DNA from: a virus
Lineage: Duplodnaviria; Caudoviricetes
Length of the DNA stretch: 64,000 nucleotides
Reading direction: 5' to 3' (one strand)
Virus record (IMG/VR): IMGVR_UViG_3300033067_002502
Coordinates: 32,001-96,000 of that record
The notes beneath the pieces were generated by a model. That model saw only the letters and a program-made list of their open reading frames with translations, did no database searches and was not told the DNA's origin. Shown here piece by piece: positions 1,328 through 32,050 of this stretch. The translations under genes and the position numbers were made by a program. The stretch's first letter is position 1. Each line of letters begins with the position of its first letter.

Positions 1328-4300
1328 ATGGCTGAAAATCAAGGAAAACCAATTAAAATGCAGTTACCTACTAAAAAAGTATCTGCTACTATTTTGGCCT
1401 CTAAAGGAAATGTTATAAAAGACGGCAATGCTGCTAATCTTAATAATTACGCAGGATCTACTGTTCTTACTTTTCCTATTACAAAAAATTCTCAGTTTGC
1501 AGGTTCTGGTGCTAATGTTACAATGACTCAGCCTATGTTCTTTTCTCCACTGCACACTCCTCAAAACTGGCAGATTGCAAGTAAAAGAAAAGAAGTTTAT
1601 CAATGGGCAAGACATTATTACGAAAATGAACCAAAAGTTGCTGCAGGTATAGATTTTTATTCCCAATTCCCAATTAACGGAATGAAATTAACTTGTAAGA
1701 AAAAAAGCGTTATGAGATTTTATGAAAGACTTGTAGAAAAAGTAGATCTCATGTATTGGCTTAGAATGATAAGTCACCAAAGATTTCTTCTTGGTGATGT
1801 TTATGTTATGACGGAAATAGAATGCCCTCATTGTAAAGGAAGCGGCATTGATAAAGAAAGCGGAGAAAATTGCAATCATCCAGATGGAACAATAGGAAGA
1901 GTTACAGTTCTTAATCCTGATTGGATTGAAGTTATGAAAACTCCTATTTCTCAAGAACCTCAAATTGTTCTTTTGCCAGATGAGGAAATTCAAAAGATTA
2001 TTCAAACGAAACAGCCAAAATTTTTATATGATCAGATTCCAGATAATATAAAGATGCAAATTATGGCTAAAAAACCAATTCTTTTATCAAATAGAGTTAC
2101 AAGTCATATAAAGCACGGAGGAGTTCCTTATGGAACATATGGAGAGTCTTTACTTCGTCGCTTGTTTACGAGTCTTGCATACAAAACAAAATTAATGACA
2201 GCAAACTGGATTGTTGCAGAAAGGCTAATCCTCCCTGTTCGTATTGTGAAGGTTGGTTCTGATGAACGTCCAGCAGATGATGAAGCAATTGCAGATATGT
2301 CTTCTCAATTATCTGCTGTTGCAAACGATCCAAATCTTACAATCGTAACTCATAATAATGTTGAATATGAATGGTACGGGGCCTGCCAGGATAATTTAAC
2401 AGAAATTCTAACTTACAATGGTTGGAAATTGTTTAAAGATATTAGTAAAGATGAGATAGTGTCTACTTATAATAAAGACTCTGGTTTTATGCAATGGCAG
2501 CAAATACAAAAGTATCATGAATATGATTTTAAGTCAACAGAAACTCTTAAAATGATTGATTTTAAATCGAGAGGAGTTGATATTAGAGTAACTCCTAATC
2601 ATAGAATGCTTGTTCAGAGAGATGACAAATGGATTGAGGTTTTGTCTCAAGAAGTTAAGCATGGCGATAAGTTTTTAAATAATATTAATTGGCAAGGATA
2701 TTTTCCAGAAGTATTACAGTACAAAGATAGTCCTTTATCTCATCTTGTTCTTGATGATTATTTAGAATTTGTTGGCTATTATTTAAGTGAAGGCGGAGTT
2801 AAGAGAGAAACAAAACGAAATCTTTCTGTAGATAAACAAATACAAGCATGTTCTGTTGGACAAAATAGAAATAGTCCAATTTATTCTTCTATGAAAGATG
2901 TTGTAGAATTGGTTTATCCTAATTTTTCTGAAACAAAAGATGATCGAGGAAATGACACTTTTTGCAATTTTACTATTAATAATGTAAAAATTGCAAGATA
3001 TATGGCTGAAGAATTTGGCTCTAAATCTTCTGAAAAGAAAATTCCTACTTGGGTTCTTAATCTTCCTAAAAATAAATTAAAAATAGTTTATGATGCAATG
3101 ATGGCTGGAGATGGAGATTTAAGAAATGATAATATTAAACCAAGATATAGGTATACAACTACATCTAAGAATCTTTCTAATGCTTTTTCTGAAATAGTAT
3201 TAAAACTCGGGTATTTTTCATCTACATGTTTAGAAAAAGCAAAAAACGAAAGATGCAATGATATTTATAGAATTTATTGGTCAGAAGATCGAGTTGAGAC
3301 TCCTTTTGAAATAAGAAATCAACATATTTCTAGAACTGATTATGACGGTAAAGTTTATTGCGTAACTGTTCCTAATGGTTTTATAATTACTCGTCGTAAC
3401 GGAAGAATTACAGTTCAGGGTAATAGTGGAAAGATTCATAACATTAATGCAGAATTAGAATTTGTTGGTAAAGAAATTCTTGATGGATTGATGTTAAATC
3501 AAACTCTTTTAAATGGAGAAATGGCTGGCTATAACTCTGCTCAAGTTGGAGTTGAAGTTATGATTCGTCGTCTTGAGTCTTGGAGAAATGAGCTTGCTCA
3601 GTGGATTGAGAAAAATATTTTCTTACCAGTTGCTAAGATGCAAGGATTTATTGATGAAGAAGAAACAAAAGAATTCAACGAGACAACTTATCTTTATCCA
3701 AGAATTAAGTGGAATGATTTACGTCTTAGAGACAATACAAACCAACTTCAGATGTATTTGCAAATGCAACAATCTGGGTTAATATCAGCCCAAACTCTTC
3801 TTGAAGAATTTGATCTTGATTATGATTTAGAAGTTGAAAGAATAAGAGAAGAACAAGTTCAAGCTATGCAAAACGGAATGTTAGCTGGAGGTCAAGGAGC
3901 TGGTGGCGGTGGAGGAGGAATGGGTGGCGGTGGTGGTGGAGGCGGATCTCCAGGTGGTGCAGCTGGTGGAATGGATATGGGCATGGGTGGAGGAGGAGCT
4001 CCAGGAATGGATGGAGGTATGGGCGGAGCTCCAGGAATGGATGGAGGTATGGGCGGAGCTCCAGGTGGGGCTCCAGGTGGAATGGGAGCAGCAGCCGGTG
4101 GATCTCCTCAGAAGATATACAGAAAAGGAAAAGGTCCAAAAGAGGAAGAGGTAGCTCCTGTAAGACAAACAACGCTTCAATTAACAAAACCAGAATCAAA
4201 AATGTATAGAACATTAAATGCAATGTCTTTGCCATTTAGATTATTTGCTCAATATAAGCAACCAGTTCCAAATGATTCTAATTTTTATTTAATGGATTTT

Positions 4301-4630
4301 GCTATACCAGAAATAGGTGTTGATATAGAAGTTGATGGAGAGAAGTGGCATTCATCTGTTGAAGATAAACAGAGTGATAAAGAAAGAGACGTTGTTCTTG
4401 CTAAGTTAGGTTGGAGGGTTCTTAGATTTACAGAGCAAGCAATTGGAGAGCAGCTAGGAAAAGTTCAAGAAGTTATAAAGAAAGAAGTATACGACGCTGC
4501 TAAAGAAAAAAAATCTCTTTCAAAGAAGGCACAAGTAAGTCAAGAAATGAAATATGAAATAGAAAACTGTTTTGATGGATGTGAAATTTCAAGATGTTTA
4601 CCATTAGATAATGAGGTTAAAGAAGGATGA
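1328..4630 (+). CDS. Portal protein with intein, Gly/Met-rich linker and C-terminal DUF559/Vsr-like endonuclease domain
   Basis: Lies before the protease and capsid genes. Portal-like segments include YYENEPKVAAGIDFYSQFP, LNPDWIEV, HIKH..PYGTYGESLLRR, LPVRIVKVG and IKWNDLRL. An intein interrupts EWYGA/SGKI. The C-terminus has YLMDF..EVDGEKWH..DKERD..LGWRVLRF. SD AAGGA. Confidence 0.85.
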   Translation: MAENQGKPIKMQLPTKKVSATILASKGNVIKDGNAANLNNYAGSTVLTFPITKNSQFAGSGANVTMTQPMFFSPLHTPQNWQIASKRKEVYQWARHYYENEPKVAAGIDFYSQFPINGMKLTCKKKSVMRFYERLVEKVDLMYWLRMISHQRFLLGDVYVMTEIECPHCKGSGIDKESGENCNHPDGTIGRVTVLNPDWIEVMKTPISQEPQIVLLPDEEIQKIIQTKQPKFLYDQIPDNIKMQIMAKKPILLSNRVTSHIKHGGVPYGTYGESLLRRLFTSLAYKTKLMTANWIVAERLILPVRIVKVGSDERPADDEAIADMSSQLSAVANDPNLTIVTHNNVEYEWYGACQDNLTEILTYNGWKLFKDISKDEIVSTYNKDSGFMQWQQIQKYHEYDFKSTETLKMIDFKSRGVDIRVTPNHRMLVQRDDKWIEVLSQEVKHGDKFLNNINWQGYFPEVLQYKDSPLSHLVLDDYLEFVGYYLSEGGVKRETKRNLSVDKQIQACSVGQNRNSPIYSSMKDVVELVYPNFSETKDDRGNDTFCNFTINNVKIARYMAEEFGSKSSEKKIPTWVLNLPKNKLKIVYDAMMAGDGDLRNDNIKPRYRYTTTSKNLSNAFSEIVLKLGYFSSTCLEKAKNERCNDIYRIYWSEDRVETPFEIRNQHISRTDYDGKVYCVTVPNGFIITRRNGRITVQGNSGKIHNINAELEFVGKEILDGLMLNQTLLNGEMAGYNSAQVGVEVMIRRLESWRNELAQWIEKNIFLPVAKMQGFIDEEETKEFNETTYLYPRIKWNDLRLRDNTNQLQMYLQMQQSGLISAQTLLEEFDLDYDLEVERIREEQVQAMQNGMLAGGQGAGGGGGGMGGGGGGGGSPGGAAGGMDMGMGGGGAPGMDGGMGGAPGMDGGMGGAPGGAPGGMGAAAGGSPQKIYRKGKGPKEEEVAPVRQTTLQLTKPESKMYRTLNAMSLPFRLFAQYKQPVPNDSNFYLMDFAIPEIGVDIEVDGEKWHSSVEDKQSDKERDVVLAKLGWRVLRFTEQAIGEQLGKVQEVIKKEVYDAAKEKKSLSKKAQVSQEMKYEIENCFDGCEISRCLPLDNEVKEG
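2384..3424 (+). mobile_element. Intein (347 aa) with LAGLIDADG endonuclease, in the portal
   Basis: Block A CQDNLTEILTYNGWK, block B VTPNHRM, LAGLIDADG motifs VGYYLSEGG and DAMMAGDGD, block F/G YDGKVYCVTVP..RNGRITVQGN followed by +1 Ser. Confidence 0.92.
3995..4065 (+). repeat. 30-bp tandem repeat (about 2.4 copies) encoding GAPGMDGGMG
   Basis: GGAGCTCCAGGAATGGATGGAGGTATGGGC at 3995 and 4025, with a partial copy at 4055. Confidence 0.9.
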
Positions 4631-5070
4631 GCAATCTAATTTATAATCTTAATAAGATAGCAGGTCGTAAGAGAATTAAAGATCGAGGTATTCGGTGGGA
4701 AGAGATGTATAGAGATAGATCTCGTCCTCAAAAAGAAAAGTTCGAAAAACTTTTAGGACCAGGATCTTATTATCGTTGGGAAGGTCATGATTATACAACC
4801 AATTCCATTTATTATGTTGTTGTGGGGCCTTCTGTACAAAGGCATGTTGGCAAGATGTTTTTTGCTGGAATAAAGAAAATTCCAATTGAAGAATTTACAA
4901 AAGATCCAGATACAAAAACATACAGTCCTTATGGAGAATATTTTCCTACAATAAAAGGTGCTTTAATCTACGCAAGTCAAAGATGGGGAACAAAAGTTCC
5001 TAAAAATCAAATTCCTTATACCAAAGATACTTTAGCAAATGTAGACATTCCAGAACACGTTAAGGCTTAA
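4627..5070 (+). CDS. Hypothetical phage protein (head module)
   Basis: ATGA overlap with the portal stop; N-terminal YNLNKIAG motif. Confidence 0.7.
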   Translation: MSNLIYNLNKIAGRKRIKDRGIRWEEMYRDRSRPQKEKFEKLLGPGSYYRWEGHDYTTNSIYYVVVGPSVQRHVGKMFFAGIKKIPIEEFTKDPDTKTYSPYGEYFPTIKGALIYASQRWGTKVPKNQIPYTKDTLANVDIPEHVKA

Positions 5071-5146: not shown

Positions 5147-8100
5147 ATGTTTGAAAAAAGCTCTAAAACTGAAACCAAAATGCATATAGAAGCCCTTTAT
5201 TTACCTTCAAGAGGAGCTTGGGGTCTTTATAACACTTCTCGCATAAAAGTAGCTTCTATTGATAAAACAAAGAAAACAGATCTTGGAGGATTTGATCTAA
5301 AAGCTGCTGTTGAAAAAAATCCAGACAATTTATTTGTAAAAGTTTTTGCTATAAAAGCAGATGAAGTTAATGACAATGGAGATTGTTTTAATGAGTCTGA
5401 ATTAAAAAAAGCAGCTCATACTTTTATTGGAGTTCCTGTTTTCGTAAATCATCAAAACGATAACGTAGAGAACGCAAGAGGCAAAGTTATTCATGCTTGG
5501 TATGATGATGATTCAAGAGGGATATATTGCATTAATATGGTTGATAGAGCTGCTTATCCTCGCCTTGCTAGAGGTATTGAGGAAAATTATATAAACGGAA
5601 CTTCGATGGGAGCCCAAGTCGGTTATTCTCTTTGTTCTATTTGTCATAATAAAGCTCATACGGCGGATGAATTTTGTTCGCACATAAAAAACGGTAAGAA
5701 TAGAAAAATTAGCGGAAGTTATGAATGCAAATATCACGAAAGTCCTTGTGGATGCGAAGATAAATGCCCATTAGATAGTAAGAAAAAATCAGAAACAAAA
5801 GAACACCTTCATAAAGATGCTAAAGTTTTTGAATGGAATTATGATATAAAATTTATAGAAGATAGTTTTGTTGTAAATCCAGCTTGTCACGACTGTTTAG
5901 TTTGTGATATTCTTAATGTAGAGGCAGTTAAGAGTGCTACATCAAACAGTATATATGAATTAAAGAAAGTTGCTTCTGCTTTAAGTGAGTCTGTTAGTAA
6001 AATGACAGATGGTTCTTTAGAAAAGACTGCTGGTAAAACAGAAGTTGAAGCTTTGACTCAAGCTATGAATCTTATGGAACACGTTGCTCGTTCTATGATG
6101 GCTCAAAAACAACAGATTCAACTTGATTATGTAAGCGATCTTGTAGAGCAACTTGCAAAGGTTCAATCTTTACAAGATGAACTTGTTGAAATGGGATACG
6201 CTCAATTGCCTTCTCCTCCAGAACAACAAATTGCTCTTGGGAATATAATGCAAAGCCCTGCAGGTCAATCTTCTCAGCAAGTTATGAATCCTTCTCAAGT
6301 TGGACAACAGCCTCAACAAGCAGCTCAAAGTTTAAGTCAACCGCCTTCCTCTGCAAGTCCTTCCTCCGCAAGCCTTGGAGATGTTGGAAGTGTTACTAGA
6401 CCAACATTTACTGGAGCTTCTTTGGAATTAAAGAAGGAATTTATTAAACAGTCATCGAATATGAGCGAGAAGCTGAATTTATTAAGTACAGCATTGCGTG
6501 GTTCTTTGGTCTTGTTAGCTCAAAGGAGAATGAAAGTGTCTAATTCTGAAAATATTGCTGAGTTTTCTAACGGCAATCTAAAAGTAACCGTTGCTAACGT
6601 TGAAGGCGACGGTTTAGTTGTAGGTAAATGGAAAGATAGTAAGCTTGTAAGCTGGGCTTCTCTTGATGAAATGGGCGATGAGATTAAAAGTCTTGCCGCT
6701 TCTAATTTACAAGAAGCTGCAAAAGTTATATTTAGTCAATATCAAAAAGAATCAGGAGTTAATATGTCTGCAAATAATAATACAAAAGTAGCATCTGGAA
6801 ATTCGTCTCAACAAGAAGTTACAACGCAAGCTCAACTTGATAAAGCTGGTCCTCTTCATCCAAGAGAAGAAAAATATCCAACAGTTACAACTCAAGCACA
6901 ACTTGAAGGCGGTGGAGAGATTAAACCAGTTAACAATACTACTTCTGACGACAATCAGCTTCGCAAAGATACTGCTCCTGAAGTTACTACGCAAGCTCAA
7001 CTTGAAGCATTAAGTGGAGATCTTGCTAGATGGAACGATTTCCCAGAAGTTATTACTCAAGGTCAATGGGACGAAATGAGTCGTAGAGTTTCTTCTTCTT
7101 TAGGAAGCGATTATACAGATCAAATTACTCAAGCTCAATTAGAAAGTTTGCAAAAGTCTCACAAATGGTCTCCTCCTGAAACAATAACTCAAGATCAACT
7201 TAATTCACAGAAGAAAGTTTCTCCAGAAGGAAAATCAGATTCTGAACGTTGGGCATCTTCTGCTAAGAATCTTATTAAAGCAGCAAGTTCTGCTGTTTCT
7301 GATGCAATCGCAGGATATGGTCTTTCTCCTTCTGATGTATCTAAAGCAGTAAATAAAATAAATGCATCCCCTTATGCTGTTATTAAGGCTTCGTATCTTT
7401 CTCTTATAAACGGATCTCCTGTAAAGATTCAAGCAAGGCTTGCAGAGCGTAATCGTAATAACTATTTTGCTAAGACAGCAAAAGTCTCTTCTGCAGTAGA
7501 TCCTGTAAATGGTCTTCTTGCCGCAATGGGAGACAATATTGGTTATTTGAAAGCAGAAGATTTTGTTGCTGCTGTCAAGTTTGTTGTTAATGATAAAAAA
7601 GCATTTGCATCTGCAGAGTCTTCTGCTCAAGTAAAAATTGCTTCAAATAATAATGATAGCGTAGAAGTTGTTGATACAGACAGTCTTTTCCGTCAAGCTT
7701 TTGCAGAAATGGATCGTCCTGAAGATGGTCTTTATAAGATATGCGGAACTCTTACAGAAGATGTAAAAACAAATCCTTCAGATAAGACTGCGTTTATGAA
7801 TTCTTTATTCTCTTTTGCAAAAACTCAAATTGACGTTCCTTTTGTTATTGCAAAAGTTGATTTAGATAAAGAAGCTGGCGTTTTTGAAATTGAATGTAAA
7901 GAAGAAAGATGCTGTTCTTCAGAAGAAAAAACAGCTTTCGCTTCTGTATTGAATTCTCAAGTTAAGACAGCAACACAAAAACCACAAGAAAAGAAAGAAG
8001 AAAAAGTTGCTCGCTCTTCTAATAGAGCAAATCTTGTTAAAGAAGCTCAGATGATGGGCGGTCAAATGGGAGGAGGAGCAGGTGGTGCTGGTCCTGCTGG

Positions 8101-11100
8101 TGGAATGGGAACAATGCCTGGAGCAGACGCTGGTGGAATGGGTCAGCCTCCTACAGAAAATCTTGGTGGTCAGCCTGGAGAACTTGGTGGAGAAGATGGT
8201 TTAGATGATATGGGTGGAGAAGATTCTGATATGCAACCAAAACCACCTGGTACAATTTGTCCAGTTTGCGGTTCTGGAGACGTTGATGTTCTTGATGGAA
8301 AAGGTAAATGCGGAAATTGTTCTGCAGAATTTTCTTATAAAGTTGATATTGAAATTACAAAATATCCTGGACTTCTTGATGATGGAAAAGAAGGCGGAGA
8401 AGAAGATGGTCTTGGTGGACCTGGCGAAGAAACAGAAGGTGCTGGAGAAGGGTTTGCTCTTCCTGAAGGCAACGAGCCTGCAAGTATGCCAGTTGCTGCT
8501 ATGACTCAAATTAAACCAGAAATGATTAAGAAAGCAAAAGCAGATGCTCTTGCTAATGGATCAACATGGTCATTGGGAAGTATTAGTCCTTATACTGGAT
8601 CTAATAGCGTTATGAAGATTAGTGATAATAAATTCCTTTGTCTTGATACAGGCGGAACTTACGAAGTTCACGCTGCTGGTGTTGATAACAAGGGCAGCAA
8701 AGCAGTATTTGCTGAATGGCGTTTTGAAGCTAAACCTCTAGTTGGAAATTGCGAAAGTTGCAGACGTAAGAAAAACGCATTTTCTTCAGCTCTTAAGTCT
8801 CACGGCATGAGCGATGAAGTTTTTGATTCAATGCTTCTTCTTGATAAAGGTAAAACAGTTCTTGCTATGAAAGAAAAAGGATTATTTAGCACTGTAAAAA
8901 CAGCTTCTAATAAATCTTCTATTCTTCAAGGACTTAAGAAGACATCTTCTTTCGGAAGCAAATTCCCAATTGAAACTTGTAGAGAAAAAATTGCTCGTAA
9001 ATTTGGACAGAATGCTCTTGCTTTGAGTGGTCCATGCGAAGGAGCAAATTTAGCTGATTGTGTTTGTAAGAAGCTTTCAACTGCTGGCGTTTACAGCAAC
9101 AACCTTGCTGTAAAAGTTGCAAGCGTTTGGGCTAACGAAGATCAAATGGTTCAATGTGTTGAAGATTTTGTTCGTAGTAAGAAATTCTCTATGAAACAAT
9201 CATGTTTCATATGCGATCAACTTAAGACAAAGTATGCACAATTTGATGATAGTGCTGCAGAAGAGATTGGTGGGGAGTCTTCAATGCCTATGAGCGGACA
9301 AGATAATTCTCAAGCTACAGAAGAACCTTCTAATGATGATGGTTTTGGAGATGTAGATCCATTTTCTTCTGAAGATAGTTCTAGCGAAGAAAGCAGTCAA
9401 GAGACAAGCGATCCTTCTATGAGCGGAGAGCCTGGAATTGAAGAAACTCCATCTATTGAAGGAGGAGAAGGAACTGATTCTCCTTTAGGATTAGGAGAAG
9501 AAACAGAAGTATCTAGTCCTATGACAACTCCTACAGCAATGCCTCCTATGGAAGGAAATAAGCCTGGAGTAGGAATGGTAACATTTGAAATACCTCTTGA
9601 TGCTCTTGAACAACTTGATAAAGCTATAGATATTGCTAAGGGAGAGAATCCAGCAGAAGAAGCACATCATCAAGAGCCATTAAGCGGAGCGGCTGTTATT
9701 GATATGCCTTTGGAATCTGTTGAAGGTCTTGATCAAGCAGCAGATCAAGTTCTTGATACGGCTGTTGATGCAACAAAAGAAGTAGGAGAATCTATTGGAG
9801 AAGCAATGAACTCTACCGAAACTCCTATGGAAGAAGAATCTGTTGGTGAAAAAGAAGTTGAACCTTCAAGTGAAGAATCTCATTCAGAAGGAGGAGAATC
9901 TTCTGAATCTCCAGAAGTAAAAGAAGAAAGCTTTGATAAAACAGGAGAAGAACCTTCTGAAGAAAGCAACAAGGATTCTTTTATGTCGCAAGCACAAGCA
10001 TCAGCTCAAGTATTCAAGAAAGGTAAGATTGGAGGAACTGGCGAAATCAATTTAGATTTAAGTCATGTTATGAAAGTTCTTGCAAGTCAAGGTAAAATTG
10101 CTAAAGAAGTATCTTTAGAAAATGTTCAAGACAATAAAGATATTGGAAAAGTTAGCGATGGAAAGACAATGGGTAATGAAGAAAAATTCGATGCTAAAAA
10201 ACCAGAAGTCTTTACTGGTGATGCAACGATGGGTGGAGAATCAGAAGCAGGATATAACAATGATAAACCAAAGGCTTCTTTTGAATCTGGCGGAGCAGAA
10301 ATGGGTGATGAAAAAGCACAAGGGTATACAGCTGAAAAACAAAATACAGCAACAGGCGGAGATAAGGGTCAAGGAAACCACACCTCGTCTAGCAAAGCAA
10401 GAATGTCTTCTTTAGCAGAAAGAATTGTTAATGCTTCTGTAAAGAAAACAGCAAATGATAAGAAATTAGAAAATGCAGCACCTATTTCTGAAGATGGAGA
10501 TGTAAAGCCATTTTCAGCAAATAAAGATAATCCAAAGAGCGGAAATCCTATTAAGCCTTTTGAAGAAGGACAAAAAGTAGGAAAAGTTGACGCTGGAGAT
10601 TCTAGTTTTATGGGTCATGAAAAAGAAACATTAACAAGCGTACCAAAGGAAGAAAATTCAGCCCCTAGCATTCCTGCTGGCGGAGGAAAGAATCCTAAGT
10701 ATGATAATAACGAAAAGAATACGCCGGAAAAACAAACGGCACATAAAGGAACAGTAATCTCTAGTGGAGATACAGAGTCCTTGGCGGTTAAAAAAGAGGC
10801 TGCAACAAGGGTCGCAGGTCGTAAGTTAAAAGCTGGCATGATATCAATAGATAAGCTAGCATCAGAAATCGAGAAACTTTCTCGTTATGATACTTCCGAT
10901 TTGAGAGACATTGAAACAGCTCTTTTCGGAGCTTCCAAGAAAGGACTTGACACTGTTGCAAAGGGTTCGGAAAAACCAATAGTTATTTCCGAAAAGAGCA
11001 ATCAAAGAAAAATTACATCGGAATTGAAGGATTCTTTACAGAGTTTGTTTACTCTAGATAAGAGAAACGTTCTTGCTCAGGACGATCCAACAGTCGAGAT

Positions 11101-11125
11101 CAAGAAAAGTAATTATAGATCGTAA
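5147..11125 (+). CDS. Prohead (capsid maturation) protease fused to a giant scaffold/core region
   Basis: The N-terminal NDNGDCF..F.GVPVFVNH..ARGKV..GTSMG..CSIC..C.H..F.EDSFVVNPA is typical of phage prohead serine proteases (His in NH, Ser in SMG). The rest is acidic, Gly-rich and repetitive. Lies between portal and capsid. SD AGGAG. Confidence 0.8.
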   Translation: MFEKSSKTETKMHIEALYLPSRGAWGLYNTSRIKVASIDKTKKTDLGGFDLKAAVEKNPDNLFVKVFAIKADEVNDNGDCFNESELKKAAHTFIGVPVFVNHQNDNVENARGKVIHAWYDDDSRGIYCINMVDRAAYPRLARGIEENYINGTSMGAQVGYSLCSICHNKAHTADEFCSHIKNGKNRKISGSYECKYHESPCGCEDKCPLDSKKKSETKEHLHKDAKVFEWNYDIKFIEDSFVVNPACHDCLVCDILNVEAVKSATSNSIYELKKVASALSESVSKMTDGSLEKTAGKTEVEALTQAMNLMEHVARSMMAQKQQIQLDYVSDLVEQLAKVQSLQDELVEMGYAQLPSPPEQQIALGNIMQSPAGQSSQQVMNPSQVGQQPQQAAQSLSQPPSSASPSSASLGDVGSVTRPTFTGASLELKKEFIKQSSNMSEKLNLLSTALRGSLVLLAQRRMKVSNSENIAEFSNGNLKVTVANVEGDGLVVGKWKDSKLVSWASLDEMGDEIKSLAASNLQEAAKVIFSQYQKESGVNMSANNNTKVASGNSSQQEVTTQAQLDKAGPLHPREEKYPTVTTQAQLEGGGEIKPVNNTTSDDNQLRKDTAPEVTTQAQLEALSGDLARWNDFPEVITQGQWDEMSRRVSSSLGSDYTDQITQAQLESLQKSHKWSPPETITQDQLNSQKKVSPEGKSDSERWASSAKNLIKAASSAVSDAIAGYGLSPSDVSKAVNKINASPYAVIKASYLSLINGSPVKIQARLAERNRNNYFAKTAKVSSAVDPVNGLLAAMGDNIGYLKAEDFVAAVKFVVNDKKAFASAESSAQVKIASNNNDSVEVVDTDSLFRQAFAEMDRPEDGLYKICGTLTEDVKTNPSDKTAFMNSLFSFAKTQIDVPFVIAKVDLDKEAGVFEIECKEERCCSSEEKTAFASVLNSQVKTATQKPQEKKEEKVARSSNRANLVKEAQMMGGQMGGGAGGAGPAGGMGTMPGADAGGMGQPPTENLGGQPGELGGEDGLDDMGGEDSDMQPKPPGTICPVCGSGDVDVLDGKGKCGNCSAEFSYKVDIEITKYPGLLDDGKEGGEEDGLGGPGEETEGAGEGFALPEGNEPASMPVAAMTQIKPEMIKKAKADALANGSTWSLGSISPYTGSNSVMKISDNKFLCLDTGGTYEVHAAGVDNKGSKAVFAEWRFEAKPLVGNCESCRRKKNAFSSALKSHGMSDEVFDSMLLLDKGKTVLAMKEKGLFSTVKTASNKSSILQGLKKTSSFGSKFPIETCREKIARKFGQNALALSGPCEGANLADCVCKKLSTAGVYSNNLAVKVASVWANEDQMVQCVEDFVRSKKFSMKQSCFICDQLKTKYAQFDDSAAEEIGGESSMPMSGQDNSQATEEPSNDDGFGDVDPFSSEDSSSEESSQETSDPSMSGEPGIEETPSIEGGEGTDSPLGLGEETEVSSPMTTPTAMPPMEGNKPGVGMVTFEIPLDALEQLDKAIDIAKGENPAEEAHHQEPLSGAAVIDMPLESVEGLDQAADQVLDTAVDATKEVGESIGEAMNSTETPMEEESVGEKEVEPSSEESHSEGGESSESPEVKEESFDKTGEEPSEESNKDSFMSQAQASAQVFKKGKIGGTGEINLDLSHVMKVLASQGKIAKEVSLENVQDNKDIGKVSDGKTMGNEEKFDAKKPEVFTGDATMGGESEAGYNNDKPKASFESGGAEMGDEKAQGYTAEKQNTATGGDKGQGNHTSSSKARMSSLAERIVNASVKKTANDKKLENAAPISEDGDVKPFSANKDNPKSGNPIKPFEEGQKVGKVDAGDSSFMGHEKETLTSVPKEENSAPSIPAGGGKNPKYDNNEKNTPEKQTAHKGTVISSGDTESLAVKKEAATRVAGRKLKAGMISIDKLASEIEKLSRYDTSDLRDIETALFGASKKGLDTVAKGSEKPIVISEKSNQRKITSELKDSLQSLFTLDKRNVLAQDDPTVEIKKSNYRS

Positions 11126-12936: not shown

Positions 12937-14358
12937 ATGAAGTTTATAAATACTACTAAAAATTCGGTTCATCTTGAGGATATAAAATTATCAATACCTT
13001 ATAACGACGAGATTCCTCAACACATTGATACAGAATTAGTAAAAAGAAGTTCTTCTTTTCAACAAATGGTTTCTTTTGGAGGATTTAAAGTAATCGAAGC
13101 AACAGTAGATCGCATTGAGCAAAATCTTTTAAAATTAAGTAATTTATATAATCCAATTATTGAAGAAGAAAAAACTAGACCTAAAAGTGGGAATAAAGTT
13201 GAGGTTATATTAAGGGGTCATTTTTACGAAACGACTGGTTATTCTAAAGTAAATAGGAATTTGGCAATAAACTTATATCGTAACGGTTTTTTTGTAGAAA
13301 TAGACCCAATTTCTACAAAAAATAACGATATGAATGAAATAGAGGCAAGGGTTTTTTCATCTTTTAGAAAAACAGCAGGAAAGGATGCAATACTTATTGA
13401 TAGTGTTATTCCTTCTCAAGGAAATCCCATTAAGGGTCATTATAATATATTATATACAACTTCTGAGTGTTGTTTTGTTCCAAAACAATTTATCGAAATA
13501 GCTTCCTCCTATGATGAAATTTGGGTAACAAGTAATTTTAGTAAATCATCTTTTAAGAATAGTGGCTGTAATTCTAAAATAACAGTTGTTCCTCCAATAA
13601 TAAATAAAAATTTATACAAAGAAAATGTTTCTCCTTATTTATTTAGACCTCAATTAAGAGAATTTTCTTTTTTAAGTGTGTTGACTTGGGATTACAGAAA
13701 AGGAAGCGATGCTCTTTTAAAATCTTATTGTAAAACTTTTACAAACAGAGATGAAGTATCTCTTGTTCTTCTTATTTCAGAAAAATCAAAATCTATTCAA
13801 AAAGAGATTAAAGAAGATATTAGAAAGCATATGTCTTTTCCAAACGCTCCACATGTTCTCGTGTGTACTAAGTCAATAGTAGAGCATCAGATGCCTTCTT
13901 TTTATAAGTCTTGTAATGCTTTTGTTTTACCATCTCGCGGAGAAGGTTTTGGTCTTCCGTTCTGTGAAGCTTCTTTATGTGGTCTTCCTATTATTTCAAC
14001 AAATTATGGAGGACAGCTTGATTTTTTGTCTGAAAATAATTCAACATTAATAGATGTTGATGAATTAGAAAAAGCAAGCAAAACTGGAATACATTATTGG
14101 GATGGACAATTGTTTCCTAGTTTGAAGTCTGAATCATTTATAAATTCTCTTGCTGATGGAATGAGAAGTGTTTACTTGAATTACGGTAAGTCTGTTGAAA
14201 AAAATAAAATTTTGCAAAATAAGATTATTGAATATTTTAGCGGAGAAAAAGTTAAACATCAGACGAAGATATTATTAGATTCTGTTTGGGACTCTTTGAA
14301 AAGGCGTAAAAATGATTGTTCTATTAAATACATCAAACAAAACTATTACAATATGTGA
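12937..14358 (+). CDS. GT4-family (GT-B) glycosyltransferase with an extra N-terminal domain
   Basis: TGYSKVNR, DEIWVTS, YRKG.D.LLKSY and FVLPSRGEGFGLPFCEA (intact EX7E). Confidence 0.88.
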   Translation: MKFINTTKNSVHLEDIKLSIPYNDEIPQHIDTELVKRSSSFQQMVSFGGFKVIEATVDRIEQNLLKLSNLYNPIIEEEKTRPKSGNKVEVILRGHFYETTGYSKVNRNLAINLYRNGFFVEIDPISTKNNDMNEIEARVFSSFRKTAGKDAILIDSVIPSQGNPIKGHYNILYTTSECCFVPKQFIEIASSYDEIWVTSNFSKSSFKNSGCNSKITVVPPIINKNLYKENVSPYLFRPQLREFSFLSVLTWDYRKGSDALLKSYCKTFTNRDEVSLVLLISEKSKSIQKEIKEDIRKHMSFPNAPHVLVCTKSIVEHQMPSFYKSCNAFVLPSRGEGFGLPFCEASLCGLPIISTNYGGQLDFLSENNSTLIDVDELEKASKTGIHYWDGQLFPSLKSESFINSLADGMRSVYLNYGKSVEKNKILQNKIIEYFSGEKVKHQTKILLDSVWDSLKRRKNDCSIKYIKQNYYNM

Positions 14359-14872: not shown

Positions 14873-15618
14873 ATATTGCAATTTTGAATTTTGAAGTTCC
14901 GTGGATTGTTCTAGCATCTACGAGTTTAATTCGAGGATTTCTTAATAAATTCCCCAATAGTAATATTTATTTTTTTGTTTCTCAAGAAAGCTTTCCTGTT
15001 CTTCAGCATAATCAAAAAATACAAGTAATTAGCGGCTATACAAGTAATTTGCCTTTTTCTTTTGATCTTGTTGTAAATCTTTCGCCAACAATAGAATCTT
15101 CAAATTTTATGGCAGAATTAGATTCAAAAATAAAATTAGGTTTTATTGAATCTAGTGGTAATATCTCTTATTTAAACAAGGATGCAGAAGAATATTATGC
15201 TATTATGTACAATAGACTTCCTACAGAAAAAAACATATTTCAAGTTATCTATAAAATAGCAGGATTAACATGGAGAGGTGAGGGTTATGATTTAACTTAT
15301 TATCCTAAAAATAGAACTAATAAAAGAAGAACAGGAATAGCTGTATCTCATGAGGATCTTAGGCATTTTATTAAAAAAAATCTTACTTTAAGTATGTCTG
15401 AAATATGTAGCGTTCCAATAAGAAAAAATATATTCAAAAAAATGGATGAAATTAATAGATGTATGAATATTATTACGGATGATTTATTTATATTACACGC
15501 ATCTATTGCTCTTAGAAAGAATGTGGAATTTTTAGACACTACAGGCCTCTCTACCAAAATAGAATTTTTTGGAAAAGGGAATTACTACAGGATAAAAGAT
15601 GGAAGCTGGAAACTTTAA
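14869..15618 (+). CDS. Divergent GT9 (heptosyltransferase-like) glycosyltransferase
   Basis: TTG start. IVLASTSLIRGFLNKFPNSNIYF, FDLVVNL and IITDD..LHASIAL.K resemble GT9 motifs. Confidence 0.55.
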   Translation: MNIAILNFEVPWIVLASTSLIRGFLNKFPNSNIYFFVSQESFPVLQHNQKIQVISGYTSNLPFSFDLVVNLSPTIESSNFMAELDSKIKLGFIESSGNISYLNKDAEEYYAIMYNRLPTEKNIFQVIYKIAGLTWRGEGYDLTYYPKNRTNKRRTGIAVSHEDLRHFIKKNLTLSMSEICSVPIRKNIFKKMDEINRCMNIITDDLFILHASIALRKNVEFLDTTGLSTKIEFFGKGNYYRIKDGSWKL

Positions 15619-16429
15619 AAGTAAAAAAATAGAAATTAAAAGAGTTCATAATAATCCAAAGAAAAGAGTTTCTTACAATCCTTCTCTTTTTGGTTTTAAG
15701 GATTTGTCTGGAAATGGTAAGTTTGTAAGGGTTTGTTTAATTGATAGCGGAGTTCCTATTCATAAAGACATTACTGTAGATGAATATAAGAGTTATAATT
15801 TTACACAAAGCGGTAGTGTTAGAGATGTTTTTGGTCACTCAACGGCACTTTCTGGAATAATCGCAGCAAATGGTAATGGAGGAATAAAGGGCTTTGCTCC
15901 AGAAACAGACTTGTATTTTGCTAAGTCTTTATTAGATAGTAATGGAGAGGGGGATTTTGATTCTGTTATAAAATCTTTACTTTGGGCTATTACTAGAGAT
16001 GTTGATATTATTCTTATGGCTTTTGGATCTTCTATTGAACACGAAGGAATTCATGATGCTATTAAAAAAGTTTATAAAAAAGGAATATCAATGTTTGCAG
16101 CTTGTGGAAATTGTACAGTTAGAACGAAAGATGCAGATTTTCCAGCAAGATATAGTGAAGTTTTTTCTGTTGGATATTCTAATAGTATAATTAATAATGA
16201 AGTAGTTAAAATTGATGGCAAATCAAAAGGAGTTATTCTTCCTTATCAGGATTTTGAAACAACTTTTACTAATTCAAAGTTTGCAACAATGGAAGGTAGT
16301 AGTTTATTTTCTGCTGCTATTTCTGGTATAGCTGTTCTTGTTTTTCAAAATATGAGACATAAAGGCTTAGATGTAAAAAATCCTCAGATTGTATACAATG
16401 AAATAGGAAGACTTGCTGTTAGTGAATAA
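15599..16429 (+). CDS. Subtilisin-like S8 serine peptidase
   Basis: Catalytic motifs VCLIDSGV (Asp), FGHSTALSGIIAA (His), AACGN (oxyanion Asn) and EGSSLFSAAISG (Ser). Confidence 0.85.
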   Translation: MEAGNFKSKKIEIKRVHNNPKKRVSYNPSLFGFKDLSGNGKFVRVCLIDSGVPIHKDITVDEYKSYNFTQSGSVRDVFGHSTALSGIIAANGNGGIKGFAPETDLYFAKSLLDSNGEGDFDSVIKSLLWAITRDVDIILMAFGSSIEHEGIHDAIKKVYKKGISMFAACGNCTVRTKDADFPARYSEVFSVGYSNSIINNEVVKIDGKSKGVILPYQDFETTFTNSKFATMEGSSLFSAAISGIAVLVFQNMRHKGLDVKNPQIVYNEIGRLAVSE

Positions 16430-16446: not shown

Positions 16447-17082
16447 ATGCCACATGTACCTCGTAATAAATGTTTTTATCCTGATGCAAGTTTTGTATTC
16501 TTTACTCCATCTAATCCTTTAGATTGGACATCGAATCCAGGTACTGTTCAATTAGCTTTGGACGAATTAGGAGAAAGATCTGGAGTTGGATCAGGAAGTG
16601 GTGTTTCTGGTTTTAGTGGTTATAGTGGATATTCAGGAAGTGGCATTTCTGGATATTCAGGCTTTAGCGGTATATCTGGATATAGTGGTATTTCAGGATA
16701 TTCAGGATATTCAGGAAGCGGTATTTCAGGATATTCAGGATATTCAGGCTATAGTGGAGATAGAGGAGATGCAGGTGTTGGTCTTGATGGAGATTCTGGA
16801 TATTCAGGTATTTCTGGTTTTAGTGGTTATAGTGGCTATTCAGGATATAGTGGTATTTCCGGCTATTCAGGAAGCGGTATTTCTGGTTTTAGTGGTATTT
16901 CCGGCTATTCAGGTTTTAGTGGAATTTCTGGTTATTCTGGATTTAGCGGAATTTCAGGATATAGTGGATATTCAGGAAGTGGTATTTCAGGTTATTCAGG
17001 ATATAGCGGTATATCTGGATATTCTGGTTATAGTGGTTCACCTGGATCTTCTGCGATTTTTATGAATAGGAATTTTATTTAA
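16447..17082 (+). CDS. Gly-X-Ser collagen-like repeat virion fibre protein
   Basis: About 150 aa of (G-Y/F/I-S)n triplets. Confidence 0.75.
   Translation: MPHVPRNKCFYPDASFVFFTPSNPLDWTSNPGTVQLALDELGERSGVGSGSGVSGFSGYSGYSGSGISGYSGFSGISGYSGISGYSGYSGSGISGYSGYSGYSGDRGDAGVGLDGDSGYSGISGFSGYSGYSGYSGISGYSGSGISGFSGISGYSGFSGISGYSGFSGISGYSGYSGSGISGYSGYSGISGYSGYSGSPGSSAIFMNRNFI
16750..16823 (+). repeat. 74-bp exact direct repeat, copy 1 (copy 2 at 25537-25610)
   Basis: TATAGTGGAGATAGAGGAGATGCAGGTGTTGGTCTTGATGGAGATTCTGGATATTCAGGTATTTCTGGTTTTAG is identical in both collagen-like genes. Confidence 0.9.
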
Positions 17083-20298: not shown

Positions 20299-20940
20299 AT
20301 GGAAAAAGATAGTGTAAATTTTGTTTATAGAAATAAAAATATATCAATTAATATAATTGATAAAAAAGAATATATTGGTAATTATATCAATCATAATAAA
20401 AATTTTTATGAAATTGAGCTTTTAGAACAAATATATAGTTTAAACAAAAATCACAACACTATATTAGATATAGGATCTAATATAGGAAACCATGTTGTTT
20501 ATTTTGAAAATTTTATTTCATATAAAAAAATGTTTTGTTTTGAACCTCAAAAATTAAATTATGAAAAACTGTGTAGTAATATATACAGAAGCGATACTGT
20601 TGCTTTTAATGTAGCTTTGAGTGATAGCTTTGGAAAGGGAAGTCTTGTAAAAAAAGAAGAATTCAATAGTGGCACATATCAACTTGTTGGTGGAAAAGAA
20701 GTAGATGTTTTGCCTTTAGATTATTTTAATTTCAAAGATGTTACTTTGTTGAAAATTGACGTAGAAGGTCACGAGCTTAGAGTTCTAAATGGTGCTTTAA
20801 ATACAATAAAAACGTGTAAACCAATAATATACATGGAAGTTGCAGACGAAGAAGCTTCTGATTTATTAATAGAAATAGGATATAAAAAGGATTTTGTTTT
20901 TTGGTATGGTCCTTCCCCTACTTATCGTTTTGTTATTTAA
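20299..20940 (+). CDS. FkbM-family SAM methyltransferase (start revised)
   Basis: ILDIGSNIGNH, CFEP, NVALS and LLKIDVEGHE.RVL.GA. Confidence 0.9.
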   Translation: MEKDSVNFVYRNKNISINIIDKKEYIGNYINHNKNFYEIELLEQIYSLNKNHNTILDIGSNIGNHVVYFENFISYKKMFCFEPQKLNYEKLCSNIYRSDTVAFNVALSDSFGKGSLVKKEEFNSGTYQLVGGKEVDVLPLDYFNFKDVTLLKIDVEGHELRVLNGALNTIKTCKPIIYMEVADEEASDLLIEIGYKKDFVFWYGPSPTYRFVI

Positions 20941-20954
20941 GAAAGATTTATAAA

Positions 20955-23069
20955 ATGCAAGATATTGAAATAACAGTAGAGATAAGCACTAAAGACAGAT
21001 ATTTTACAACTCTCCCTATGTGCTTAGCAAGTATTGCTAATCAGACGTATAAGCCTAAAAAAATACTTATATTTGATGATGGAGAGCATAAAGACCTAAG
21101 ACAAGAGCCTATTTATATTAATTTATTTGCTTTGTATCAATCAAAAGGTATTGAATTTGAAGTTATTTTTGGTCAAAAAAAGGGGCAAGTTCATAATCAT
21201 CAAGCGGCTATTTATTTAGCAAAAACAGATTGGATTTGGAGGTGCTTTAGAGGTAATCAAAAAGTAGAAACGATTAATGGTTTAAAAAATATAAGAGATA
21301 TAGAAATTGGAGAGTTAGTAAAAACTCATAAAGGAAGATATAAAAAAGTTATAAGAACATATAAACAAGATTATGAGCCTAAAAAAGAATTGCTTTGGAT
21401 TTATACAAAAAATTCTGTTATAAAGTGTACCCCAGATCATCCTTTTTTAATCTTAAAAGATAATAAAAGAGTATGGACTAAAGCTTCTAATTTAAATGAA
21501 AGCTCTATTTTACTTTATCCTTGTTCTGATAAAAAAGATGAAATAAATTTTGACTGTTTTGGAAGAGGAGCAAAATACAATAAATTGCTACATTATTCTG
21601 GAAAAAACTTTAAAAATGAATATTTTGGCAAATTTAGTGTTGATGAAGATTTGGCTAGATTTTTTGGATTATATCTTGCCGAGGGCTGCGGAGGACATGA
21701 CTCTATTAGATTTACCTTTAATAATAAAGAAAAAGAATTTATTGATTTTATAATTAAAGTTTGTAAAGAAAAATTCAATAGAAATCCTACCGTTCATTCA
21801 AGATGGGCAACCTGTGTAAAATTAAATATACGAAGTTTTGCGAAAAAATTTACTGAATGGTTTGGAGATGATGCAACAAATAAAAAAGTACCTGATTTTG
21901 TTTTTGATTGGTCTTTAAAGAATAAATTGGCCTTTTTACAAGGATATCTTGATGGAGATGGATGGCAAAATCAAAAGATGTATCGCTTTGGAACTGCTAG
22001 TAAGGATTTATTTAATGGTATAAAAAAATTATGCATAGAAAGCGGATTAGACTGTACTGATGCTCACGAGACAGGTCCAAAAGAGACACAAAGTTTGGGT
22101 GTAAAAATAAAATCAAGCGGATGTCTTTCTGGAGCTATAAGTTCTATTGGTTATAGTAAAATGCAAGATATAATACAATCAAAGATTGTTGACAATTGTT
22201 GTATTATACCTATTAATAGGATTGAAAATAAAAAAATGCCAACAGTTAACTGGAAAGACGATCAGTATGTTTATAATCTTGAAGTTGAAGAGGATAATTC
22301 TTATATTGTAGGTCCGTGTATTTGTCATAATTGCGATGATGATGATTTTCCAGAACCTAATTGTCTTGAAGAAATGATTAAAAGCATAAATGAAGAAGTT
22401 GGGGCAATAGGGCCTCTTGTTTTAGATCCAAAAGAAAAAATAATGAATAGTGAAATATGTTCTAGTAAAATAGAGCATATTTATACTCATATGAACATTC
22501 AATGGTCTAATCTTAAAGAAATAAAAGAAGTAGATCATCTTAATAATACTTTTTTGTTTAGAAAAAAAGCAGCATTAGATGCCGGTGGGTATTGTTTAGA
22601 CTTAAGCCCTGTTGGTCACAGAGAAGAGACTTTATTTACATATCAAATTAAAAGAGATGGCTATAAAGTGCTAGTGAATCCAGGTGCTATTGTTTGGCAC
22701 TTAAGGAATCCAAGTGGAGGAATTAGATCTTATGAGCATTCTTTTTTTTGGGAACATGACGAAAAAGTATTTTTACAAAAATTAAGAGATTTTGGAGTAA
22801 AAATAGATAAATTAATTATCTTAAATTGCGGTCTTGGGGATCATTTTGCATTTAAAATGATATTACCTGAATTAAAAAATAGATACAATTTAACTTTATC
22901 TGTTTGCTATCCAGAAGTTTTTAAGAATGACGATGATTTAAATATTATTTCAATACAAGATGCTATGAAAATTGAAAAAAGCATAGACAACCATAGTGTT
23001 TATTTATTTATGATTAAAAATAATTGGAAAGGAACGATTGTTGACGCTTTTAGAAAGATGTTATTATGA
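20955..23069 (+). CDS. GT2-family glycosyltransferase with intein and a C-terminal GT9-like half domain (start revised)
   Basis: ISTKDR, LIFDDG, WIWR/CDDDD (DxD restored after splicing), HREET and VWHL. The C-terminal LNCGLGDH resembles the GT9 N-terminal motif. Confidence 0.85.
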   Translation: MQDIEITVEISTKDRYFTTLPMCLASIANQTYKPKKILIFDDGEHKDLRQEPIYINLFALYQSKGIEFEVIFGQKKGQVHNHQAAIYLAKTDWIWRCFRGNQKVETINGLKNIRDIEIGELVKTHKGRYKKVIRTYKQDYEPKKELLWIYTKNSVIKCTPDHPFLILKDNKRVWTKASNLNESSILLYPCSDKKDEINFDCFGRGAKYNKLLHYSGKNFKNEYFGKFSVDEDLARFFGLYLAEGCGGHDSIRFTFNNKEKEFIDFIIKVCKEKFNRNPTVHSRWATCVKLNIRSFAKKFTEWFGDDATNKKVPDFVFDWSLKNKLAFLQGYLDGDGWQNQKMYRFGTASKDLFNGIKKLCIESGLDCTDAHETGPKETQSLGVKIKSSGCLSGAISSIGYSKMQDIIQSKIVDNCCIIPINRIENKKMPTVNWKDDQYVYNLEVEEDNSYIVGPCICHNCDDDDFPEPNCLEEMIKSINEEVGAIGPLVLDPKEKIMNSEICSSKIEHIYTHMNIQWSNLKEIKEVDHLNNTFLFRKKAALDAGGYCLDLSPVGHREETLFTYQIKRDGYKVLVNPGAIVWHLRNPSGGIRSYEHSFFWEHDEKVFLQKLRDFGVKIDKLIILNCGLGDHFAFKMILPELKNRYNLTLSVCYPEVFKNDDDLNIISIQDAMKIEKSIDNHSVYLFMIKNNWKGTIVDAFRKMLL
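21243..22331 (+). mobile_element. Intein (363 aa) with LAGLIDADG endonuclease, in the GT2
   Basis: CFRGNQKVETING.K.I, CTPDHPF, FGLYLAEG, LQGYLDGDG and VYNLEVEEDNSY..CHN followed by +1 Cys. Confidence 0.93.
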
Positions 23070-31702: not shown

Positions 31703-32050
31703 ATGGAAAAAAATCAACCAACATCTAATGAAATGCTCGCAAAGCTTAAAAAGCTAGGATTAGAAAATGAAGTAGAATTTATTTTTATACCTTCTGTTGA
31801 GCTAAAAAATAGAATTATTAGAGGAGGAGATTCTATTATTGACAAACTCCCTCCTTTGGCAAGAAAAGTTTTTTTAGAATTACCAGAAGGTAAAGGTATT
31901 GCGTTATACTTTCCTACAGTTTTAAAATATATAGACAAAACCTTAGATAGAAATAATTCTTATATATTTGATCTTGGAGAGATAAGAGTTCGCAATGAAA
32001 ACGAACTTATAATTAAAGCATTAAATAGATCTAATAATTTGCGAAAATAA
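31703..32050 (+). CDS. Hypothetical protein
   Basis: 115 aa, preceded by a GCCGACAA motif, no SD. Confidence 0.6.
   Translation: MEKNQPTSNEMLAKLKKLGLENEVEFIFIPSVELKNRIIRGGDSIIDKLPPLARKVFLELPEGKGIALYFPTVLKYIDKTLDRNNSYIFDLGEIRVRNENELIIKALNRSNNLRK

Follow-up and report, generated by a model that had tools for sequence, protein, structure and literature searches.

A portal protein carrying a predicted Vsr/DUF559-type endonuclease domain in a clade of very large tailed phages

The DNA analyzed here (hereafter, the window) is a 64,000-nucleotide stretch of the tailed-phage record IMGVR_UViG_3300033067_002502 in IMG/VR, covering positions 32,001 to 96,000 of that record. Close to its left end, the plus strand holds an open reading frame (ORF) at 1328-4630 that encodes 1100 amino acids (aa) without an internal stop, or 753 aa once an intein has been spliced out. 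Its upstream part is identified as a phage portal protein, and its C-terminal part as a predicted nuclease domain separated from the portal by a Gly/Met-rich tail. The features of this ORF and of the adjoining head genes are listed in Table 1.

From sequence comparison, the upstream part of the ORF is regarded as a genuine portal because it matches the portal family phrog_16240 (aa 53-356, E 2.2e-36 in a PHROG scan), because it is homologous to gp14 of Bacillus phage G, and because the genes follow the order portal, protease-scaffold protein and capsid protein. The gp14 protein is the best match of the ORF in the phage database, with 30% identity in two pieces that flank the intein, and a preprint reports it as the virion portal of phage G on the basis of proteomics and cryogenic electron microscopy (10.1101/2024.12.16.628780). 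A search of the PDB with the family profile matched no solved portal by sequence. The intein runs from C353 to N699 and is followed by S700, thus presenting Cys1, a C-terminal Asn and the nucleophilic Ser+1, and intein-free homologues join the portal flanks directly at this site.

The C-terminal domain is assigned to the DUF559/Vsr-like superfamily by its sequence, predicted fold and predicted active site. Its Pfam match, PF04480, scores 39.2 bits against a cut-off of 20.6 bits, and a weaker match to REase_MTES_1575 overlaps it. The original prediction, made from the letters alone, had proposed an in-frame fusion of a portal to such a domain from the motifs PESKMY, AQY, YLMDF, IEVDGEKWH, DKERD and LGWRVLRF, and had noted KKAQ just downstream; all of these lie in the portal frame of the translation, and the PF04480 and phrog_16240 matches bear the proposal out. 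For aa 927-1100, an AlphaFold model based on 57 homologues reached a mean predicted local distance difference test score (pLDDT) of 84, with 87-97 in the core, and its structural matches agree with the fold that had been suggested. The top match in a Foldseek search of the PDB was 3r3p, the catalytic domain of the phage homing endonuclease I-Bth0305I, with a target-normalised template modelling score (TM) of 0.77-0.81, followed by 3hrl (the DUF559 protein NGO0050 of Neisseria; TM 0.80), Vsr (1cw0, 1vsr) and PvuRts1I. The family profile, which uses sequence only, also recovers 3r3p at E 2.4e-5 and 3hrl at E 2.4e-4, and in the case of NGO0050 (PF04480) the alignment extends over the whole domain. 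Such DUF559 proteins either stand alone as small proteins or form the C-terminal module of a cellular protein, whereas the present domain sits on a portal and has an added long helix and beta-hairpin.

Alignment with Escherichia coli Vsr by hhalign (probability 85%, E 6e-6) pairs E956, D990, D1003, W1007, H1008 and D1017 with Vsr E25, D51, H64, W68, H69 and D97, respectively, and places E1001 at the position of Vsr F62. The catalytic residues of the Vsr/EDxHD group have been named by Taylor et al. (PMC3239194), who also describe W68 as one of the tryptophans of Vsr that intercalate at the mismatch, and I-Bth0305I as having an extra acidic residue at the F62 position and no zinc site. The portal domain shares with I-Bth0305I (3r3p) and Vsr (1vsr, 1cw0) a common fold, the catalytic constellation and the spacing E...D...x(5)H...(9)D. 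Like I-Bth0305I, it has the additional acidic residue and lacks the Vsr zinc insertion, whose approximately 19 residues after the WH motif form a gap in the alignment. It has an Asp at the position of Vsr His64 and I-Bth Asn208. Among 120 homologues, E956, D990, D1003, H1008, D1017 and E1001 are each kept in 113 to 120, and W1007 is near-invariant. The acidic and His residues, described as intact in the original prediction, are indeed present. The accompanying claim of a PD-(D/E)xK signature holds for the restriction-endonuclease-like fold and fails for the canonical motif, since the domain follows the Vsr variant, in which His serves as the general base and Lys is absent. As far as modelling can indicate, the C-terminal domain thus has a Vsr/DUF559-type fold with a complete catalytic set and is a predicted nuclease. 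It is not Vsr proper because the zinc insertion is missing and a Dcm-type partner was not found (no C5-methyltransferase scored above the cut-off in five related records).

Table 1. Features of the portal-nuclease ORF and of the head genes that follow it (window coordinates)
Feature	Position (nt)	Strand	Evidence or remark
Portal N-terminal extein, aa 1-352	1328-2383	+	phrog_16240; phage G gp14 match; 51-94% identity to 80 related loci
Intein with LAGLIDADG homing endonuclease, aa 353-699 (347 aa)	2384-3424	+	Pfam Intein_splicing and LAGLIDADG_3
Portal C-terminal extein to last helices before the tail, aa 700-842	3425-3853	+	Second gp14 alignment piece; 54-94% identity in relatives
Gly/Met/Ala/Pro tail or tether, predicted disordered, aa 843-931	3854-4120	+	Composition, 81 ORFs; Tandem Repeats Finder (TRF)
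Basic junction motif PxK(I/V)xK(K/R)GKxPK, aa 927-938	4106-4141	+	Column conservation; predicted disordered
DUF559 Pfam match PF04480, aa 951-1053	4178-4486	+	E 6.9e-10
Predicted Vsr/DUF559 (EDxHD-type) endonuclease fold, aa 953-1067	4184-4528	+	Pfam, AlphaFold, Foldseek, profiles, conservation
Remaining C-terminal stretch including KKAQ, aa 1054-1100	4487-4627	+	Boundaries refined by script
KKA at end of last helix (KKAQ at aa 1066-1069, nt 4523-4534)	4523-4531	+	Conservation, AlphaFold
C-terminal beta-hairpin appendage, aa 1074-1092, moderately conserved	4547-4603	+	AlphaFold strands 148-156 and 159-166 of model; nonsynonymous to synonymous rate ratio (dN/dS) ~0.37
147-aa gene, start overlapping the portal stop (ATGA)	4627-5070	+	Conserved family; candidate nuclease partner
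1992-aa prohead protease (N-terminal ~260 aa) fused to giant scaffold-like protein	5147-11125	+	phrog_18299 head maturation protease E 6.4e-11; phrog_2774
Major capsid protein, 296 aa	11937-12827	+	phrog_2522 major head protein E 5.5e-58

The fusion is a fixed property of the relatives, as the original prediction would require. A protein search over 5.8 billion proteins returned 366 clusters, with 119 relatives listed; among these matches PF04480 was flagged in 118, and a later search showed the domain in the remaining one. These proteins measure about 740-810 aa when intein-free and up to 2602 aa with several inteins. In every case some 40 residues separate the domain from the C-terminus, and all relatives retain the fusion, to as little as about 50% portal identity. 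We also compared 80 related IMG/VR loci, where the domain and the portal share one stop-free frame wherever the contig holds both, with a single exception. This is L014 (IMGVR_UViG_3300045125_000158; 187 kb, estimated 93% complete), in which the portal, intein and nuclease parts lie in different frames, either because the Gly repeats were misread in sequencing or because the copy is decaying; the genome size estimated for it, about 200 kb, is also atypical for the nuclease-bearing clade. Each of 21 related records has exactly one DUF559 domain, the one on the portal.

Between pairs of sequences, domain distances correlate with portal-core distances (Mantel r 0.73, p 0.001) just as closely as those of one portal half correlate with those of the other (0.72); the domain is therefore inherited vertically with the portal. 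It is also under purifying selection: dN/dS is about 0.05-0.2 in the domain core and about 0.05 in the portal core, all of these ratios being rough since synonymous sites are near saturation for most pairs. Nuclease-bearing portals occur in complete genomes of 461-499 kb with terminal repeats, and most fragments of the clade extrapolate to genomes of about 0.4-0.7 Mb. The record containing the window is 170 kb long (estimated 34% complete), and its portal belongs to a phage of about 0.5 Mb. DUF559 was absent from three complete or near-complete sister genomes of 150, 173 and 205 kb.

The tail between portal and nuclease, delimited by a composition criterion, comprises 89 aa in the window (49% Gly, 12% Met, 13% Ala and 7% Pro). 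A linker of about 70 aa made of these four residues had been predicted; the tract is present, and by this criterion it is longer. A Gly/Met/Ala/Pro tract is present in 58 of 60 long homologue matches. Across 81 ORFs, the mean composition of the tail is stable (43% Gly, 15% Met, 12.5% Pro, 12% Ala), with a median length of 82 aa and a range of 42-104 in complete ORFs. TRF detected a tandem repeat at 3995-4065, made of 2.4 perfect copies of a 30-nt (10-codon) unit, and this in-frame repeat shows a route by which tail length may drift without loss of frame. Minus-strand ORFs at 3864-4235 overlie the same region of repeated Gly codons.

The description of this segment as a flexible linker is only half adequate: it is predicted to be disordered, and sequence comparison shows that it is more than a linker, for nuclease-less related portals have such a tail as well. 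In distant portals (about 30% identity, about 550 aa) a similar Gly/Met-rich tail forms the end of the protein, with nothing attached, and phage G gp14 terminates in a Gly/Pro-rich one. Compared with the window protein, phage G gp14 and the sister portals of the 150-205 kb phages have a homologous core (about 30% identity) and a Gly-rich low-complexity tail, without an end domain. The tail is older than the nuclease because the portals of the 150-205 kb relatives and of phage G end in a bare tail. The nuclease-less loci with bare tails have the same protease and capsid genes. The Gly/Met tails of these portals resemble the GGM tails of GroEL. Within the window, Gly/Met tracts are confined to two proteins, the portal and the giant scaffold, and, together with the bare tails, the scaffold tract raises the question of whether such low-complexity segments assist in bringing the portal into the scaffold core.

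The 147-aa gene lies downstream of the portal in 79 of 80 loci, the missing one being cut at the contig end, and family members are 48-84% identical among relatives. A hidden Markov model of this family had no match in 25 nuclease-less portal loci. Comparison of loci L089-L113 with L004-L083 showed three unrelated families of small genes in the slot that follows the portal. These are the 147-aa family and two that occupy the slot in nuclease-less loci, one of CxxC zinc-ribbon type (123-140 aa) and one that is beta-rich (130-155 aa). The AlphaFold model of the 147-aa protein has a pLDDT of 85. The protein had no Pfam or PHROG match, its protein-atlas scores were below the useful level, Foldseek gave no match, and the best hit of a wide VIA-align search had a Z score of 4.6. 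The gene is tied to the nuclease-bearing clade, and its link to the nuclease is only suggestive.

The next gene encodes the protease fused to a giant scaffold-like protein, which is conserved in relatives at 1835-2477 aa. We take the His and Ser motifs of its protease part to resemble those of the HK97 (S78) type. The scaffold part is acidic and of low complexity, with a positionally conserved MMGGQMGG tract in the middle of the protein and Cys-rich, zinc-ribbon-like segments. The structural module further includes a subtilisin-family (S8) peptidase and collagen-repeat, tail-fibre-like proteins (window 15599-16429, 16447-17082 and 23590-25803). A glycosyltransferase gene directly follows the capsid gene (12937-14358), and a family-2 glycosyltransferase gene among the structural genes (20901-23069) is interrupted by a LAGLIDADG intein (Pfam Intein_splicing, E 5e-12). 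Downstream of the window, the same record contains four consecutive giant ORFs of 2746, 1507, 2768 and 3230 aa (G000:C1:108512-139295).

Inteins also vary within the portal gene itself. Insertions of about 360 aa number zero, one, two or three in 31, 19, 13 and 3 distinct ORFs, respectively, and occupy at least three sites; portal inteins are sporadic, in contrast to the fixed nuclease domain. A helicase and a PhoH-like ATPase with inteins were observed in the record of the window (G000:C1:144602-147154; L085) and in a relative (L084), and since both are intein-bearing, this phage lineage is unusually rich in inteins. One further protein, P0135 (358 aa, from 22 contigs of up to 200 kb), has an ORF that begins in the C-terminal part of the portal and spans the tail and the nuclease. 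Because of this internal start, the portal gene may be split in some phages, with an intron, a homing-endonuclease gene or a split intein among the conceivable causes; no close locus for the split form was found in IMG/VR.

Solved portals consist of twelve subunits whose C-terminal crown faces the capsid interior. Because of this dodecameric, inward-facing arrangement, twelve copies of the domain inside the capsid can soundly be expected by analogy. The fusion would then act as a built-in capsid-targeting device that delivers exactly twelve nuclease domains to each procapsid and places them immediately below the inner opening of the DNA channel, each on a tether of about 110 residues. We propose, with a probability of about 0.4, that the domain acts as a nuclease carried in the virion, which it enters by way of the portal, and that it is possibly freed by a protease. 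It could remain tethered or, slightly likelier, be cut free; the latter is slightly favoured because the junction motif is conserved, disordered and basic (G934 is kept in 109 of 120 homologues, and the segment has a pLDDT of about 66 and no secondary structure) and because the abutting gene is specific to the clade. The enzyme cutting at this junction would be the apparently HK97-like prohead protease, the product of the second gene after the portal. A precedent is the portal gpB of phage lambda, which is trimmed during maturation. Once freed, the nuclease would leave the head with the DNA and cut DNA in the newly infected cell. The 147-aa protein is a candidate partner or inhibitor that may protect replicating phage DNA from the nuclease during synthesis of the portal. 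The fuller scheme, in which twelve active Vsr-type nucleases act inside the head, through processing at the channel mouth or as a protease-freed effector of fixed dose, with the 147-aa protein as inhibitor, is offered more tentatively. The role of the nuclease is one that we infer, and the mechanism is the least certain step of the explanation.

Several known systems offer precedents, by analogy, for the release of a portal-associated nuclease. MuF proteins, encoded beside portal genes, often carry nuclease toxin domains; more than half of MuF toxins have such domains, and downstream of most of the toxins lies a small unannotated ORF regarded as conferring immunity (Jamet et al. 2017, PMC5576092). 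The SPP1 protein gp7 is a DNA-binding protein that binds the portal inside the capsid (PMC5576092), and T4 gp4 is a virion-associated nuclease with a restriction-endonuclease fold that is needed for morphogenesis (PMC7824862). Like MuF toxins and SPP1 gp7, the nuclease described here would be internal to the capsid, is associated with the portal and is encoded at the portal locus, and the succession of a nuclease at the portal and a conserved 147-aa ORF recalls the toxin-immunity arrangement. On the other hand, no MuF family (PF04233/PF06152-type) was among the Pfam matches of the ORF, and fusion to the portal itself would give 12 copies rather than 1-2. The portal nuclease is also conserved and not polymorphic, and it occurs in huge, apparently lytic-type phages instead of temperate siphophages.

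A number of observations weigh against this proposal. All members are uncultured, and the interior location rests on general portal architecture. Any cleavage site is hypothetical; at the C-terminal end, where the original prediction had pointed to KKAQ, the residues KKA are conserved (K1066 in 106, K1067 in 85 and A1068 in 81 of 120 homologues) and lie at the end of a long helix, ahead of a low-confidence stretch of the model. A shared cleavage motif, [IV][YF][KR]KGK, was considered, since in the window it occurs only at the tail-nuclease junction and in the scaffold, and was rejected because just 1 of 58 related scaffolds contains it. No consistent DNA-modification genes that might protect phage DNA from a non-specific nuclease were found; the search gave no C5-methyltransferase, and ThyA-like genes were present in two of four complete relatives. 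The 147-aa protein is without a recognisable fold, its clade restriction is confounded by phylogenetic distance, and nuclease-less relatives carry a different small gene in its slot. Finally, a nuclease that leaves the head does not explain why a bare tail without a nuclease exists.

The strongest alternative, which we consider slightly less likely, is a nuclease that stays tethered permanently and handles the phage's own DNA inside the head with no proteolytic release. Arranged around the inner channel mouth, the twelve domains would meet the first end to come in and the last segment packaged; they might trim, nick or hold an end, or cut at distorted, mismatched or damaged sites of the passing DNA. 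The universal covalent fusion in the clade would suit such a role, as would the narrow range of tether lengths (42-104 aa, median 82), although the same range occurs in bare tails and may reflect a role of the tail itself. The invariant W1007-H1008 pair, aligned with Vsr W68-H69, hints at structure-specific rather than general cutting, and SPP1 gp7 exemplifies an internal DNA-binding protein bound to the portal (PMC5576092). The fusion is also tied to the 461-499 kb clade and is missing from the 150-205 kb sister phages, but this link with genome size is probably a single evolutionary event. Furthermore, no need for an active nuclease on packaged DNA is known, and an intact catalytic set would be unnecessary for simply holding an end.

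It is improbable that the domain is a selfish or domesticated endonuclease of the homing type, residing at the 3' end of the portal gene, cutting rival genomes near the portal locus in the cytoplasm during mixed infections and driving its own allele. Such an origin is brought to mind by the closest structure and best profile match, both of which are the I-Bth0305I catalytic domain, by the viral look-alikes in BFVD, which are mostly small stand-alone or homing-type proteins, and by the portal gene being a hotspot for such elements (none to three inteins, spread over three or more sites). However, the domain is not an EDxHD homing endonuclease in architecture or behaviour, because it has no recognition region, lies outside the intein and has a fixed distribution. 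Where I-Bth0305I has a NUMOD/helix-turn-helix recognition domain, Pfam detected neither NUMOD nor any other sequence-reading DNA-binding domain in the ORF, and only the Gly/Met tract and the portal lie upstream. The domain is not inside an intron or intein and is attached to a structural protein. It is fixed rather than sporadic, unlike the inteins of the same gene, has one copy per genome, diverges together with the portal core and has kept its catalytic residues over deep divergence.

A catalytically silent module, serving as a structural plug or DNA-binding anchor at the inner channel mouth with residues kept for metal or DNA binding, is held to be equally improbable. The flanking segments are basic (aa 927-938 and 1059-1069), and the bare tails of relatives show a non-enzymatic role for the tail; nevertheless, five catalytic positions and E1001 are kept in 113-120 of 120 homologues, and exapted nuclease folds usually lose some of these.

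Least probable is a nuclease coupled to packaging that clears branches or junctions at the outer side of the portal, in the manner of T4 endonuclease VII (gp49) or T4 gp4. The former is described as bound to the portal gp20 and as releasing stalled Y-DNA (PMC9958956), and the latter is virion-associated and acts in morphogenesis (PMC7824862). Together they set a precedent for a nuclease at the portal vertex that is needed for packaging or morphogenesis, and gp4 has a restriction-endonuclease-type fold, as does the portal domain. Both T4 proteins are separate polypeptides that associate non-covalently and act outside the head, and they have an EndoVII fold or belong to a TnsA-like subfamily, in contrast to the present domain. 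A C-terminal domain inside the shell could not reach a branch stalled outside while DNA fills the channel, and a separate Endonuclease VII of 156 aa is present in two of four complete relatives. Among the roles named in the original prediction (DNA resolution, end processing and ejection), resolution of branches beyond the shell would be topologically awkward for an internal domain. In favour of a junction-clearing role, a search of the four complete relatives for RuvC was negative, which is a weak result, as the searches of these genomes also missed the terminase. Queries with Pfam Terminase_6N and 6C and with the phage G terminase had no match in the record of the window or in the four complete relatives, and phrog_19299, tried as a terminase, matched only inteins in the helicase and PhoH genes. 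A likely large terminase of 1424 aa with two inteins is encoded upstream of the window in the same record (G000:C1:17927-22201; L087:11927-16201). This candidate was recognised solely by PHROG terminase families (phrog_17415, E 6e-22) and gave no Pfam terminase domain, no PDB sequence match and no phage G terminase match. The idea that the portal nuclease replaces the terminase nuclease found no support.

The DUF559/Vsr-like superfamily itself is known, and automatic annotation by the Joint Genome Institute names these ORFs 'very-short-patch-repair endonuclease'. A portal with a covalently attached enzyme domain appears to be new. To our knowledge, portals with an enzymatic domain have not been described before; within the library searched, full-text queries turned up no publication that connects portals with DUF559 or Vsr, and one on portal processing in phage T5 returned nothing of use.

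In tailed phages and herpesviruses, the portal ranks with the most conserved and most thoroughly studied components, and current models of packaging and ejection include no nuclease at the packaging vertex. A catalytically intact nuclease fixed on the portal throughout a clade of phages of about 0.5 Mb would imply a selected function at this vertex. If the domain is released, the fusion would be a simple, stoichiometric way of loading cargo into capsids, which is of interest to phage engineering; if it is tethered, enzymatic handling of DNA would take place inside the head, with a bearing on the packaging of very large genomes. Either version, if true, would constitute a portal function of a new class and a new means of getting proteins into capsids, and the portal of these phages would be more than a passive gate, delivering an enzyme or cutting DNA.

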